Shown here: positions 48,429-52,841 of the stretch, one piece after another
Numbering within the stretch: position 1 is the stretch's first letter
Layout: every line of letters begins with the position of its first letter
Origin: Escherichia coli
GTDB lineage: Bacteria > Pseudomonadota > Gammaproteobacteria > Enterobacterales > Enterobacteriaceae
DNA length: 64,000 nt
Assembly: GCF_003334815.1 (NCBI RefSeq)
Contig: NZ_QOWO01000001.1
Direction: 5' to 3' (one strand)
The notes under the pieces: generated by a model
What the model was told of the DNA's origin: nothing
Seen by the model: the letters and a program-made list of their open reading frames with translations, nothing else
The model's database searches: none
Made by a program: the position numbers and the translations under genes

Positions 48429-50702
48429 TTATGGTGTTTGCGCGCCATCTATCATCATGCTTCGCTGCCTTACTGCTTGTTGCTGTCGTAGTTGCTGTAT
48501 CACCTTCCGGGCTAATGCATCTTCATTCATACCAGGTTCTGCCTTCACGCTGATGTGGTACTGGTCGTTGCTATGCACCGTAGTGCCACCAGAGCGGTTG
48601 GCCAGTGCAGGTGACGGCAGGGCAGCACCAGAGGCAGTGGTTGCTGCTGGCTGCTGTACATCGTCGCGGAATGGTGCGGTAAAGAAATCTTTGGTTTTCT
48701 GCCACGCACCACCAGCAACATCAGACACGGCGTTTTTAAACTCCAGTGCCTTGTTGGTCAGGTTGCCAATGTTGTCAGAAACCCAAATGATCTTATCAAT
48801 CAGGAACGTGATCGGTGCGGTCACAAGCTCGATGCCAGCCGCCAGGGTCTTACCGAACGTCATCCCCATTTTACCGGCCTTATCCAGTTCCTCGCCGCTG
48901 TATTTGACCGGTTCGGTCAGTGACGTGAACCAGTTGAAAGCCGTCTTAACCGCAGCGCCCACGCCATCAATGACGGGCTTCAATGGCCCCATGCGCTCAT
49001 ACAGGCGATGCAGGGCATCGCTAAGCGGTTCCAGCCCGGATTTGATACCTTCACCCACGCCACCAAAAAAAGCCTTCACACCAGCCCAATGGCGGTAAAT
49101 CTGATAACCTGCCAGCGCCAGGCCAGCTACGGCAGCACCAACGCCAGTGGAAATGAACGCCGCACCGATGGCGCGCACGCCGGTAGCCACCGCAGGCAGG
49201 CCACGAGTGCTGGCCAGAACGGCGGATGCGTTCATGCGGGCAAACAGGCTGGACACGTTCAGCAATCCGCCTTTCAGGAACGTGAACGCAAAGCCAGCGG
49301 CGAACGTCGCCACACGCAGTGCCACCAGTGCACTGGAACCAATAACCACTGCTTTGGTCACGGTAGGGTATTCGCGCGCCAGTTCGGCAACCTTGCCGAT
49401 AACCGGGCCAACGGTAGCCAGAACGCCGTTGAATGCTGGCAGCAGCACTGTGCCGATCGTGACGCCCAGGTTAGACACACGGTTGTTGAAAATCTTAAGC
49501 TGCGCCGACGTTTTGGCGGTGGCTGCCTCATATTCAGCCTGCATAGAACCGGCATATTTGGTCTTGTCTTTGACCATATCCAGATTCTTTTGGTACGTAT
49601 CAAGCTGTGTCAGCATTGGTGCGATAGCGCCAATCGATTCCTTACCAAACAGTTGCGAAAGCGTTGCCGCCTGCATGTGTTTTGGCAGCTTGCTGATCTT
49701 GGACAGGATGACGCGGATTGTTTCATCGGCGTTCAGTTGCATTGATTTTGCAACCTGCTTGGATGTGAAGCCAAGCTGTTTAAACGCTTCACGCTGTGAC
49801 TTCGTGGCGGATGCGCCAGCGGTCAGGGATAGCAGCAGGTTTTTAATACCGGTGGCCGCAATCTCATTCTGCACGCCCATACCGCGCAGCGTTGCACCCA
49901 TCGCAGCGATAGAACCGGAAGCTGCACCAGCGACGCTGCCAAGTGGCCCGATGCGCTGCGTGATTTCCAGGATGTCTTTGGCTGATGCGGCGGTGTTGTT
50001 GCCCAGGTAGTTGATCTTGTCGGCCAGAACGTTCATCTGGTCCTGCGTCATCCCGAAGGCGGCGCGCATCTCTGCCATTGCCTGGCCTGCCTGGTCGGCG
50101 CTGACGTCAAAAGCCACACCCATTTTGATGGCCGATTCAGCAAACTTGGTTAGTTCGCTGGTGGCGATGCCTGATTGAGCACCAGCGGCAACAATCTTGC
50201 CGATTTCGTTGGCTGCCATCGGCATTTTGGTTGACATATCCTGGATAGCCTGGCCCATCTTAACCAGGCCGTCAGGGGTTTCGAAGTTGGCAACCTTGCG
50301 GATATCTGCCAGCGTATCTTCAAAATCCATAGCCTGTTTGATCGGTACAGCTACCGTTGCGCCAAGTGCGACAGTCCCCAGGATTCCTTCTTTGTAGCCT
50401 TGACGCTTCGCCAGGTTGCGTTCGCGGGCATCCTCCACGCGTTTCAGGCGTTCGGTGGCAGAACGAAGGCGTTCAACCTGCCCGACAACCGTTTGATAGC
50501 GGTCCTTCATGCGGGAGAATATCGCGCTATCCTGGCCATAACGCTTCATTGCTTCATTTAACTGGCGCTGTTCGCGCGACAGCTTAGAGATTGCGCTACC
50601 AATCTCGACGGTATTTTTCTTTACAGTTCCAAATGCACCACGAAGGCTGCCGGAAACGGCCCCACCAATCGTGATTGTTGCATTTAACTTCTTGTTGGCC
50701 AT
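48429..50702 (-). CDS. Phage tail tape-measure protein (TP901-family core-like)
   Basis: 757 aa. It has an N-terminal coiled coil and a region resembling the TMP core (DIRKVANFETPDG...IGKIVAAGAQSG...). It also has central Gly/Ala-rich hydrophobic segments and an overall Ala/Gly/Thr-rich helical composition typical of TMPs. Confidence 0.8.
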   Translation of the reverse strand: MANKKLNATITIGGAVSGSLRGAFGTVKKNTVEIGSAISKLSREQRQLNEAMKRYGQDSAIFSRMKDRYQTVVGQVERLRSATERLKRVEDARERNLAKRQGYKEGILGTVALGATVAVPIKQAMDFEDTLADIRKVANFETPDGLVKMGQAIQDMSTKMPMAANEIGKIVAAGAQSGIATSELTKFAESAIKMGVAFDVSADQAGQAMAEMRAAFGMTQDQMNVLADKINYLGNNTAASAKDILEITQRIGPLGSVAGAASGSIAAMGATLRGMGVQNEIAATGIKNLLLSLTAGASATKSQREAFKQLGFTSKQVAKSMQLNADETIRVILSKISKLPKHMQAATLSQLFGKESIGAIAPMLTQLDTYQKNLDMVKDKTKYAGSMQAEYEAATAKTSAQLKIFNNRVSNLGVTIGTVLLPAFNGVLATVGPVIGKVAELAREYPTVTKAVVIGSSALVALRVATFAAGFAFTFLKGGLLNVSSLFARMNASAVLASTRGLPAVATGVRAIGAAFISTGVGAAVAGLALAGYQIYRHWAGVKAFFGGVGEGIKSGLEPLSDALHRLYERMGPLKPVIDGVGAAVKTAFNWFTSLTEPVKYSGEELDKAGKMGMTFGKTLAAGIELVTAPITFLIDKIIWVSDNIGNLTNKALEFKNAVSDVAGGAWQKTKDFFTAPFRDDVQQPAATTASGAALPSPALANRSGGTTVHSNDQYHISVKAEPGMNEDALARKVIQQLRQQQAVRQRSMMIDGAQTP

Positions 50703-50723
50703 AATAATTGTGCTCTCAAGGAA

Positions 50724-50930
50724 TTAATTAAGTAAATTTTCTGCAAGGGTGTGTTCACCGATTGCCCGCAAGGCGGCAGCGGCCAGTTGCAGGGCGCATT
50801 CGGTGCGGTAGTCTCGCTGTTTCTGCATTTCCTCCGCTGTGTTGCACGCCAGAACTTTTGGCAGGACCATATCCACCAGTTCAGGCCAGGGGTTTGTTCC
50901 TTCCGGTTTTGTGTGAATACGGTCCAGCAT
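50724..50930 (-). CDS. Hypothetical 68-aa protein immediately upstream of the tape-measure gene
   Basis: ATG preceded by AAGGGGG at about 6 nt. It is in the same reading frame as the upstream orf105, separated by a TAA stop codon plus three further codons. Confidence 0.55.
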   Translation of the reverse strand: MLDRIHTKPEGTNPWPELVDMVLPKVLACNTAEEMQKQRDYRTECALQLAAAALRAIGEHTLAENLLN

Positions 50931-50939
50931 GGTGCCCCC

Positions 50940-51257
50940 TTATGCACTCCGTACCAGGATAGCGCCGCGCTTCACCGCCTGGCGTTTGGCCCGTTCACCG
51001 GAACTGATGCGGCTGGATGGTTGCCACTTCGTGCGTCCCAGGGCGGATGCGTGGCTTTCCGCTTCGTCACGCATGATGCGGCCCGCTTCATCGGTCATGT
51101 GTTCGAATGCGTTTAAACGGTTGCGAAGGCTTGCCAGCAGGTCGGCTGCTTCGTAGCTGATAGGGTTTTTCTCTGAAATGGTTTGGAAACGCTTTGTTTC
51201 GCTAAGGATCAAACGCGCTTCTTCTTTCATTGATTCGTACAGGTCATGTTTTTTCAT
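50940..51257 (-). CDS. Hypothetical 105-aa helical protein with a basic C-terminus (possible tail-assembly chaperone analogue)
   Basis: Start placed at the internal ATG (MKKHDLYESMKEEARL...). The 44-aa ORF-track extension is low-complexity and was dropped. No strong SD, so the start is uncertain. Confidence 0.45.
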   Translation of the reverse strand: MKKHDLYESMKEEARLILSETKRFQTISEKNPISYEAADLLASLRNRLNAFEHMTDEAGRIMRDEAESHASALGRTKWQPSSRISSGERAKRQAVKRGAILVRSA

Positions 51258-51636: not shown

Positions 51637-51639
51637 GGC

Positions 51640-51954
51640 TTAGTACCTGTTCATCCAGCTTTCGCGCTTCTGTTTCGGGCGCTGCTCGCGGTAGTGACTG
51701 CGCACCAGGGAAGCGAGGTAATTCACGGCGCGTTCAATCTGGTACTGCTTAAGCTCCGGGTAAGCCTTGCGAATCCATTTTTCAGCAGCGTCATCGCTGT
51801 AGATGAATCCTGACCAGCCAACCGGCTGCACTACGATGCGCGGTGTGTTTTCATCACCGTGGCGCACATACATGGCCACACCTTCGATAGCTGCCAGGAT
51901 TTCACCCGGCAGGGCAGCGCGCTCCGCTGCCGCTTTTTTGCTGCCCCACCACAT
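51640..51954 (-). CDS. Hypothetical 104-aa protein translationally coupled to the capsid-like gene
   Basis: ATG at 51954 lies 2 nt after the capsid-like gene's TGA, with GGAAGG 7 nt upstream. The ORF-track TTG start at 51960 is rejected. Confidence 0.55.
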   Translation of the reverse strand: MWWGSKKAAAERAALPGEILAAIEGVAMYVRHGDENTPRIVVQPVGWSGFIYSDDAAEKWIRKAYPELKQYQIERAVNYLASLVRSHYREQRPKQKRESWMNRY

Positions 51955-51956
51955 GA

Positions 51957-52841
51957 TCAAGCCTTCCAGAACATAGTTGAGTCAGGCACCAGTGCGGATG
52001 CGTTCACCCACACAACGATTTCAACGGCACCATTCAGCACGCGGCGGGCGGTGACGCGGATTTCATCATCCAGGGCAACGGCTGCATTGCCGAAAGCGCC
52101 AATGATTGTGCTGGAAGTCTGGCCGCTGATTTCAGCGCGTACACCGTAGGCACGCAGAACGCCGTCTTGCAGTTCCAGGCCGGTGCAATCACCGCCAACA
52201 ATGGCTTTAACTTCATCAAAGCGCAGGTTTTTGGCTGCAATCTTCTGCGCCACTGCGGTGAATGACGGGCTGGCCAGCGTTTCCGCTGCGGTTTCCAGGT
52301 GGTTCAGCAGTACGAAATCAGCCAGGTCAGCAATTCCGCGTTCAATGGCGGTGTTGACCACTTCCAGCGTGGTATCGTCTGCGAAGTCGTGTTTCATCTG
52401 CTTGCGGCTAAGGGTGTAGCCCACGCCGTAAGCCGGTGCGTTGTTGTGGTTGAACGCTGATACCAGGTAAGGCAGGCCGCTCATGGTGATTTCTTCGCCG
52501 TCAGCCACTTTGGCGAACGCACCAGGGCGAACGACAACGAAGCGGTCAGCCACTTCGCGGCCAGTCGTTGCGCCGGTGTTGCCAGTCGGAGGCGTGGTCA
52601 TCGGGCCAGGGATGCGGATGATTTCAGCGCCTGCCTGTGCCACCAGTGAACGTTCAGCCAGAACAGCGTTGAAGGTGGTCTGCTTGCCGCCTTTCGGGGT
52701 CAGCACGTCATTCATGGACAGGTAGCGAACTGCTGCAGGTTCCACAGGGATGAATTGAGTAATGTCACCGTTGCCATCAGTGCGAATGTGGCCGCCCTGG
52801 TGGTTCAACGCGTCGTTGATAAGTTGAGATAAAACGTTCAT
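51957..52841 (-). CDS. HK97-fold major capsid protein-like protein (294 aa, no delta/scaffold domain)
   Basis: ATG at 52841 with GGAG 8 nt upstream. The segment YTLSRKQMKHDFADDTTLEVVNTAIERGIADLADFVLLNHL parallels the HK97 gp5 spine-helix region (ASRQVMDDAPMLQSYINNRLMYGLALKEEGQLL). The N-arm-like VRYLSMNDVL parallels LTIRDLL. Assignment is by eye only. Confidence 0.5.
   Translation of the reverse strand: MNVLSQLINDALNHQGGHIRTDGNGDITQFIPVEPAAVRYLSMNDVLTPKGGKQTTFNAVLAERSLVAQAGAEIIRIPGPMTTPPTGNTGATTGREVADRFVVVRPGAFAKVADGEEITMSGLPYLVSAFNHNNAPAYGVGYTLSRKQMKHDFADDTTLEVVNTAIERGIADLADFVLLNHLETAAETLASPSFTAVAQKIAAKNLRFDEVKAIVGGDCTGLELQDGVLRAYGVRAEISGQTSSTIIGAFGNAAVALDDEIRVTARRVLNGAVEIVVWVNASALVPDSTMFWKA

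Follow-up and report, generated by a model that had tools for sequence, protein, structure and literature searches.

A 9.3-kb island at fis in Escherichia coli is probably a phage satellite of Jilinvirus-type myophages that carries its own capsid-like and tape measure genes

The stretch of DNA considered here, a 64,000-nucleotide window on contig NZ_QOWO01000001.1 of Escherichia coli assembly GCF_003334815.1, carries an island between fis and yhdJ in which the gene for a major-capsid-like protein (MCP) and that for a tape measure protein (TMP) belong to one operon. The question raised by this locus is whether the two genes are what is left of a prophage or part of a compact element that still functions. 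Our results make it likely that the block serves as the late (hijacking) operon of an integrative phage satellite, 9.3 kb in size, whose helpers are Jilinvirus/Iiscvirinae myophages, represented by HeidiAbel_Bas97 (Bas97 below), ECOO78, and ep3. The satellite resembles the phage-inducible chromosomal islands (PICIs) in layout and P4 in its packaging logic. Comparison with other genomes and with phages shows what appears to be a mobile, replicating element with a helper cos site and a functional late operon. An earlier note on this DNA had argued, from the tight spacing of the genes, for a streamlined element that still functions rather than the remnant of a prophage. That view is strongly supported, and it is the backbones that carry the genes, the selection acting on them, and the cos, ori, and att sites that bear it out, not the junctions.

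The island is a unit of 9,346 bp bounded by a 17-bp direct repeat at the 3' end of fis, with accC-yhdT-panF-prmA-dusB-fis to its left and yhdJ to its right; the same att core borders the element in L006, an E. coli variant (copies other than that in the window are given such numbers). The 11 open reading frames (ORFs) inside the att sites are all on the minus strand, and the order is int, alpA, orf93, the VapE primase-helicase gene, orf74, an iteron ori, cos, MCP, orf104, RHH, orf105, orf68, and TMP (Table 1). A noncoding stretch of 766 nt between orf74 and MCP holds cos and ori, and the position of the ori just downstream of the primase-helicase gene is the PICI arrangement (PMC6092414). Homologues of the integrase have an Arm-DNA-binding N-terminus in Pfam annotation. 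The MCP-like protein and the TMP are the only structural proteins encoded. The set needed for an autonomous virion (portal, terminase, tail tube, sheath and baseplate, lysis) is missing, and searches of the island with Pfam, PHROGs, and NCBIfam found no portal, protease, or terminase. The Prokaryotic Genome Annotation Pipeline (PGAP) names only the TMP, VapE, the integrase, and one regulator and calls the remaining island genes "hypothetical."

The link to a particular helper is drawn from several parts of the element. In Bas97, the region that matches the island cos has the spanin gene on one side and terS on the other. The linear ECOO78 record starts and ends with GGACCAATGCCCC, a 13-nt terminal redundancy, and the match to the island spans both of these physical ends; since the 13-mer is also intact in the island, we conclude that the island carries the helper cos site. 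The site is kept in plasmid and island copies of the element (it is more divergent, about 79% identical, in L004-L006), and the same architecture is found beside the MCP genes of plasmid, Serratia, Salmonella, and Pseudomonas relatives, the cos-like site of the last resembling the ends of Pseudomonas phage PPpW-3. On the 3' side of cos, the satellites have a block, GTTGTGCGTG...CAAAA...TTTATGATTA (TTTA-T/C-nATTA), as is found upstream of helper terS. A scan for sigma-70 promoters found no excess of sites over shuffled sequence, and no site preceded MCP. Given the lack of a sigma-70 consensus at MCP and the retention of the phage-type block, the MCP operon appears to be read from a helper-type late promoter. 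The C-terminal 395 residues of the primase-helicase (residues 159 to 553) are 65% identical to the Bas97 "DNA primase." By these similarities, the satellite family seems to track one helper family, Jilinvirus/Iiscvirinae.

Relatives in other genera extend this picture. In Salmonella enterica (L001/L002, 4859-13800), a Jilinvirus-like prophage has its major head gene interrupted near residue 450 by an int-bearing island of about 9 kb; the terL, portal, and head proteins of this prophage are 78%, 66%, and 66 to 76% identical to those of Bas97. The island encodes a 463-aa protein made up of a prohead-protease domain, which shares 50% identity with the N-terminal part of the major head protein of Bas97, and a C-terminal domain 51% identical to the MCP in the window. 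Also encoded there are orf155 and a 521-aa protein whose N-terminus is TMP-like. This relative is a helper-embedded satellite of a nonlambdoid phage. The Serratia relatives (L023/L024, 2225-11378) occupy the same fis att site and have no TMP; their last gene is 65% identical to a Jilinvirus late transcriptional activator, and L023 carries a SocA_Panacea-domain gene pair between the replicase gene and cos. In Pseudomonas (L025/L026, 4444-14042), the MCP is 39% identical, the order MCP-orf99-RHH...TMP (831 aa) is kept, and a Phage_tail_X/gpX homologue directly before the TMP gene is 46% identical to the Bas97 "baseplate hub."

The MCP has the A and P domains, spine helix, and E-loop of the HK97 fold. 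It matched no Pfam, PHROG, or NCBIfam model at an E value of ≤0.01 and thus falls outside curated MCP families such as PF05065; a sequence search of the PDB and a tblastn search of 50,697 GenBank phage records gave no match. A scan of IMG/VR found only three copies, of about 9 to 14 kb, of the element itself, and 283 pattern matches in a scan of GTDB genomes yielded no confirmed relative. The MCP thus appears to belong to a lineage found only in satellites. Its family forms 102 clusters at 90% identity, nearly all of 294 aa and of 292 to 303 aa in more distant members, from E. coli, Salmonella, Enterobacter, Cronobacter, Raoultella, Atlantibacter, Serratia, and Pseudomonas, and many members are on contigs of 8.9 to 9.6 kb. 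The earlier note had read the order of MCP before TMP as phage-like and as a hint of selective retention or acquisition; the order is indeed phage-like, but retention from a phage does not hold for the MCP with its satellite-only lineage. Comparison with intact phages, which the note had proposed as a way to detect truncated or fused ends, found the TMP to be full length and no phage homologue of the MCP. A stand-alone MCP of about 294 aa is the rule, except in one relative clade, where it is fused to a prohead protease. Downstream of MCP, the 54-aa protein is, judging by its sequence pattern, a putative ribbon-helix-helix-type regulator (RHH). Its position and length are kept from E. coli to Pseudomonas, and MCP-orf104-RHH form a conserved core. 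Neither orf104 nor RHH had a significant match in Pfam (for RHH, none at an E value of ≤0.01), PHROGs, NCBIfam, or PADLOC.

The TMP is 58 to 60% identical over residues 1 to 757 to the 781- to 785-aa TMPs of ECOO78, PT1, Bas97, ECO1230-10, and ep3, and it aligns end to end and colinearly with phage TMPs of 759 to 785 aa. Comparison of the window with L017-L019, L015, L014, and L016 revealed a mosaic. Residues 1 to 80 and 477 to 757 are 75 to 99% identical to a set of satellite TMPs that we call type B and about 50 to 60% identical to Jilinvirus TMPs, whereas residues 81 to 476 are 33 to 40% identical to type B and 59 to 75% identical to Jilinvirus TMPs. Type B TMPs occur on plasmids and also on islands that match the window at 100% identity in their int, alpA, and VapE proteins, which argues that the TMP center was swapped by recombination. 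The center of the TMP thus appears to be exchangeable, and its ends appear to be satellite specific. The two small genes before TMP, orf105 and orf68, matched nothing in Pfam, PHROGs, NCBIfam, or PADLOC; orf105 has a 41% identical orthologue in a Serratia relative. A role as a tail chaperone or hub was considered for them and set aside, as BLASTP found no similarity between orf105 and the helper tail assembly chaperone (TAC) or between orf68 and the gpX of the helper or of the Pseudomonas satellite. That orf105 acts as a tail-assembly chaperone or inhibitor is a conjecture. Variation in this part of the operon is seen in two places. The slot between RHH and orf105 holds in L004-L006 (L004 11369-12053) a TerS homologue (phrog_57, E = 5e-27) and orf73 (73 aa); the C-terminal 86 residues of this TerS are 53% identical to Bas97 TerS, and its N-terminal helix-turn-helix is different. 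The junction of orf105 and orf68 is polymorphic, with an extra 205-bp, 69-aa ORF in other copies (L017 3204-3413, L015 2917-3126, and L027 10873-11082).

The spread and upkeep of the module speak to function. Among 5,426 complete E. coli genomes, 47 have the island at a query coverage of at least 80%, and the annotated genes are the same in each. In PLSDB, complete circular plasmids of 8,933 to 9,316 bp from E. coli, Salmonella, and Proteus carry the module MCP-orf104-RHH-orf105-orf68-TMP beside a different replicase (PriCT_2 plus Toprim plus VapE), and four Logan contigs of exactly 9,092 bp each are circular permutations of one another and represent this integrase-less form. The module is thus found whole in two unrelated settings, on int-alpA-VapE islands at fis and on circular plasmids of about 9 kb that lack an integrase, and element size stays within 8.7 to 10 kb across backbones. 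Terminal repeats were sought and not found on the contigs L004-L006, of about 9 kb, because these are integrated copies that end in flanking DNA; it is the permuted 9,092-bp contigs that demonstrate circularity. One E. coli "plasmid" record of 17,382 bp (L013, CP077066.1) is a head-to-tail dimer of a plasmid form of about 8.7 kb; its TMP frame is broken into pieces and unannotated, through either a real defect or an assembly or sequencing error.

Gene lengths and the ratio of nonsynonymous to synonymous substitution (dN/dS), which the earlier note had put forward as a check, were compared in 10 independent copies of the module. MCP is 294 aa, orf104 is 104 to 107 aa, orf105 is 105 aa, and orf68 is 68 aa; the TMP is 757 to 763 aa (one was read as 773 aa on a doubled contig), and RHH is 53 to 54 aa in 8 of the 10 copies, L004 and L006 having a divergent allele of about 53 aa that is 40% identical. 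Pairwise dN/dS was 0.13 to 0.34 for MCP, 0 to 0.24 for RHH, 0.02 to 0.21 for TMP within type, 0.08 to 0.3 in most pairs and up to 0.6 for orf104, 0.04 to 0.33 except in one low-divergence pair for orf105, and mostly 0.1 to 0.6 for orf68, for which one low-divergence pair gave 1.26. Across the module the values are mostly 0.02 to 0.45 and, in nearly all pairs, clearly below 1 for every gene. The check thus came out in favor of the note, with lengths kept and every module gene under purifying selection. The truncation, pseudogenes, and relaxed selection that mark a defective prophage were not found, and variation is limited to defined cargo slots.

The junctions themselves carry less weight. The TGA of MCP (51959-51957) is followed after 2 nt by the orf104 ATG at 51954, with GGAAGG (51967-51962) 7 nt upstream of that ATG; the orf104 TAA (51642-51640) is followed after 3 nt by the RHH ATG at 51636; and orf105 ends in TAA, with TAAGGGGGCACCATG leading into orf68, all as the earlier note had described. 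The orf105 and orf68 genes share a reading frame, with the TAA and 9 nt between them (window 50931-50945), and a gap of 21 nt separates orf68 from TMP, with GAGAG about 10 nt before the TMP start codon (ATG at 50702). The tight spacing does not extend to RHH and orf105, which are 214 nt apart (51258-51471), and the claim that each gene is full length with its own start signal holds for the lengths but not for orf105, which has no obvious Shine-Dalgarno sequence. Because short same-strand spacers are usual in any bacterial or phage operon, coupling alone cannot tell whether an element is functional or has recently decayed. The junctions by themselves prove an operon, nothing more, and are a weak argument for streamlining.

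Table 1. Sites and genes of the island, in window coordinates
Feature	Position	Strand	Basis or remark
attL	48335..48351		17-bp direct repeat AATACGGCATGAACTAA, the final fis codons and stop; exact match to 57681-57697
G+C-rich terminator-like hairpin	48376..48400		Between convergent fis and TMP genes; terminator scan, reported for the + strand only
Tape measure protein (TMP), 757 aa	48429..50702	-	Last late-operon gene; PF10145 3.5e-39; TIGR01760 5e-71; phrog_28 3e-129
orf68	50724..50930	-	Conserved small protein directly 5' of TMP
orf105	50940..51257	-	Conserved helical small protein
Variable cargo slot	51258..51471	-	Empty in window; filled in L004-L006
RHH, 54 aa	51472..51636	-	Putative ribbon-helix-helix-type regulator, by sequence pattern
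orf104	51640..51954	-	Conserved core gene, translationally coupled to MCP
HK97-fold major-capsid-like protein (MCP), 294 aa	51957..52841	-	Without scaffold/delta domain or protease
MCP operon leader, presumed late promoter region	52842..53147	-	Satellite-phage alignments
Jilinvirus-type cos	53148..53220		97% identity over 73 bp to HeidiAbel_Bas97 40926-40998
13-nt cohesive-end sequence GGACCAATGCCCC	53170-53182		Intact within the island cos
Replication origin	53233..53540		12 or more iterons, ATGACACCT/AGGTGTCAT, facing both ways around an A+T-rich core; repeat analysis
Terminator-like hairpin	53566..53583	-	Ends the early unit (alpA to orf74), separating the MCP operon
orf74	53608..53832	-	Small conserved protein 3' of replicase; 47-93% identity in plasmid forms
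VapE/D5-type primase-helicase, 562 aa	53842..55530	-	PF05272 at 4.5e-48; phrog_2249
orf93	55514..55795	-	Conserved early gene
AlpA-family regulator/excisionase	55804..55983	-	PF05930 at 3.5e-13
Tyrosine integrase, P4-type	56278..57513	-	NCBIfam integrase domain match; RefSeq annotation
attR	57681..57697		Second copy of the 17-bp repeat

A few further features of the window can be mentioned here. The TMP transcript may end at the hairpin between fis and TMP. The orf74 protein had no significant match in Pfam, PHROGs, NCBIfam, or PADLOC. A 109-aa ORF on the plus strand (window 53276-53605), hypothetical in RefSeq copies (WP_000052065.1), lies fully over the iterons and the A+T-rich ori and is probably not a gene. 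Unrelated to the island, two tandem matches to the Rfam family naRNA4 (RF02564), both above the gathering score, are found on the minus strand at 29013-29082 and 29104-29173.

How would such a satellite work? Infection by a Jilinvirus would lead to AlpA-dependent excision and to replication from the iteron ori, the helper-type late promoter beside cos would drive transcription of the MCP operon, and the helper terminase would cut and package satellite DNA at the mimicked cos. The scaffold-less HK97-fold MCP would build small shells or redirect head size, as Ccm and the MCPs of capsid-forming PICIs (cf-PICIs) do, so that a unit of about 9 kb fits and the 41-kb helper genome is excluded; we give this step somewhat better than even chances. 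By our estimate, an element of about 9 kb, or about 0.22 to 0.23 of the helper genome, would fit a T=3-4 shell. Alternatively, 4-mers would be packaged in heads of helper size. For the TMP, there is an even chance that it replaces the helper TMP in helper-built tails, giving chimeric tails as in the Vibrio satellite PLE11, which would free satellite virions from whatever acts on the helper TMP.

Several points weigh against this reading. Sequence is the source of all that is proposed here on induction, packaging, capsid size, and the incorporation of the TMP. The satellite MCP gave only insignificant matches to the helper major head protein, and it is hard to see how it would cooperate with the portal, protease, and scaffold of the helper; in one tested case, the capsid genes of a PICI were dispensable for transfer (PMC6092414, PMC10111431). 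The Serratia relatives show that the TMP is accessory to the family. At only about 25 aa shorter than the helper TMP, the satellite TMP is not there to change tail length, and the E. coli element yielded no recognizable counterpart of a TAC or hub when orf105 and orf68 were compared by BLASTP. Finally, megablast and blastn searches with Bas97 terL-portal DNA found no match in the 5,426 complete E. coli genomes, 47 of which carry the satellite, so helper and satellite were never seen together there; the only physical association of the two is the embedded Salmonella relative. Evidently, a Jilinvirus-type helper does not commonly reside in E. coli as a prophage, and a study of the BASEL collection describes such phages as effectively virulent (PMC11990801).

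A different use of the same proteins would be defense. The island or plasmid would then serve mainly against phages, with the MCP-like protein and the TMP acting as dominant-negative poison subunits in Jilinvirus head and tail assembly and with transfer not being selected. Satellites often disturb the assembly of their helpers, tail-assembly interference systems are known from PICIs and P4-like elements (PMC11364771), and the PLE11 protein Rta targets the helper TMP (PMC12987554); the SocA_Panacea cargo of the Serratia relative and the persistence of plasmid forms without a visible helper also fit. We nevertheless consider this unlikely, since a near-perfect helper cos that is kept family-wide and covaries with the phage type of the host genus would be useless to pure defense. 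The TerS homologue of some variants and the tightly constrained size point the same way, and no PADLOC model matched any island protein. Interference and transfer are not mutually exclusive, and part of the defense explanation is therefore contained in the satellite reading that we prefer.

It is also conceivable that the island is a cos satellite whose MCP and TMP are passengers that it could do without, late genes recently captured from a helper, and that it travels as approximate 4-mers in unmodified helper virions. The arithmetic allows this, as four units of 9.1 to 9.35 kb make 36 to 37 kb, about 90% of the 41-kb helper genome, and EcCICFT073 is packaged as concatemers in full-size heads with a dispensable capsid gene (PMC6092414, PMC10111431). 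The TMP center looks recently exchanged with Jilinvirus-like TMPs, and the Serratia relatives manage without a TMP. The MCP, however, is not a captured helper gene: no similarity to the MCP of the helper could be detected, and it forms a lineage of its own that is kept, with orf104 and RHH, from Pseudomonas to E. coli. Both MCP and TMP are under purifying selection, and the satellite-specific ends of the TMP are conserved. On balance, passengers of this kind are highly improbable.

Least of all do the data favor a decayed prophage, in which MCP and TMP would be remains of a formerly whole phage that deletions happened to spare. A phage origin of the TMP is clear, MCP before TMP is a phage-like order, and PGAP leaves most island genes unnamed. 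Against this stand the recurrence of the same genes, in the same lengths and order, in 47 complete E. coli genomes, on plasmids, and in other genera and dN/dS values that, for each gene, stay well under 1 in nearly every pair. In addition, sequenced phages lack the MCP lineage, the element brings an ori, a replicase, and att sites of its own along with a helper cos, and its size is held at 8.7 to 10 kb. The decayed-prophage explanation is effectively refuted, with next to no probability left to it. A gene transfer agent-like element or tailocin is ruled out by the lack of portal, terminase, and tail structural genes, and an encapsulin is ruled out by the lack of cargo and is opposed by the cos site and satellite context.

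If the island is indeed a Jilinvirus satellite, E. coli would offer a compact, tractable satellite whose helper sits in a standard collection (BASEL Bas97). E. coli genetics could then be used to ask how a sequence-unrelated satellite MCP uses the portal, protease, and terminase of its helper and why satellites bring their own TMP, so far shown only for Vibrio PLEs. The family also exposes a blind spot in satellite detection. SatelliteFinder treats tail genes as a forbidden component in its PICI and cf-PICI models, and lysis genes as well in that for PICIs (PMC10085698), and would therefore reject the island. One hijacking module moves among integrative, plasmid, and helper-embedded backbones. 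For annotation, a "hypothetical protein" upstream of such a TMP becomes HK97-fold capsid-like, and the island becomes a phage satellite and not a prophage fragment. Literature searches found no description of this element. We suggest, tentatively and with some doubt, that this is the first recognized satellite family of Jilinvirus/Iiscvirinae and that it replaces two helper structural proteins at once, with its own head of about 9-kb capacity on the helper portal and terminase and a modular TMP in helper tails. The family would extend over E. coli, Salmonella, Serratia, the Enterobacter group, and Pseudomonas in chromosomal, plasmid, and helper-embedded forms and would have been missed by finders since tail genes exclude it.

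Among known systems, the Gram-negative PICIs EcCICFT073 and PmCI172 (PMC6092414) share with the island a terminal integrase gene, alpA, a replicase gene followed by an iteron ori, a single gene direction, a helper-type cos, often a late MCP homologue, and a specific chromosomal site. Their helpers are lambdoid, whereas those of the island are Jilinvirus myophages, and they measure 10 to 20 kb, roughly one third of the helper, against 9.35 kb, or about 0.23 of a 41-kb helper genome. The island further differs in its full-length TMP and its integrase-less plasmid sister lineage, and no rpp or ppi homologue was recognized in it. Ccm of SaPIbov5 is recognizably homologous to the MCP of its helper, unlike the island MCP, and cf-PICIs such as EcCI2 encode protease, portal, adaptors, and terminase too, whereas the island encodes only the MCP. 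At about 10% sequence identity to Ccm and the cf-PICI MCPs, the likeness is one of fold only. Size redirection by Ccm or MCP homologues and cos-PICIs are precedents for the present case (PMC6092414). Helper-embedded PICIs (HE-PICIs; PMC10111431), like the Salmonella relatives L001/L002, lie inside a helper prophage, here in its capsid gene, and carry a capsid gene of their own; published HE-PICIs target lambdoid late genes, and no TMP-like genes have been reported for them.

The only tested precedent for a satellite TMP is Vibrio PLE11, whose TMP and hub replace those of ICP1, so that the satellite escapes its own TMP-targeting inhibitor Rta (PMC12987554). Like the island, PLE11 encodes a TMP divergent from that of its helper (PMC12987554). 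As with the PLEs, the likely helper of the island behaves as a virulent or facultatively temperate myophage, and the hub/gpX homologue beside the TMP gene of the Pseudomonas relatives parallels PLE BhuB. PLEs, however, encode no MCP and remodel helper capsids through the scaffold TcaP, their genome organization and host differ from those of the island, and no Rta-like inhibitor was recognized in the island. The PLE paper mentions predicted tmp genes in some other satellites and does not describe the present family (PMC12987554). Mycobacterial EPIPs (PMC12822802), compared here by description, are satellites of about 11 kb reported with MCP and TMP; they differ in being actinobacterial and in having a serine integrase, TerS, and head-tail adaptors.

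P4, with its helper P2, is like the island a cos satellite of about 10 kb that mimics the helper cos and has its own primase-helicase, a P4-type integrase, and a small myophage as helper. The cos of the island is nearly identical to that of Jilinvirus and not to that of P2, so the resemblance lies in workings, not in membership. P4 exists in an integrated or a plasmid state, whereas in the island family these are separate lineages with different replicases; P4 controls capsid size with an external scaffold and has no tail gene, whereas in the island capsid control would fall to an MCP homologue. No PHROG or Pfam match to Sid, Psu, Delta, or Epsilon was found in the island, and its replicase is of the VapE/D5 type. 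The late-activator homologue of the Serratia relative recalls P4 Delta and P2 Ogr. The island is a phage satellite of a known general kind and not a new category.

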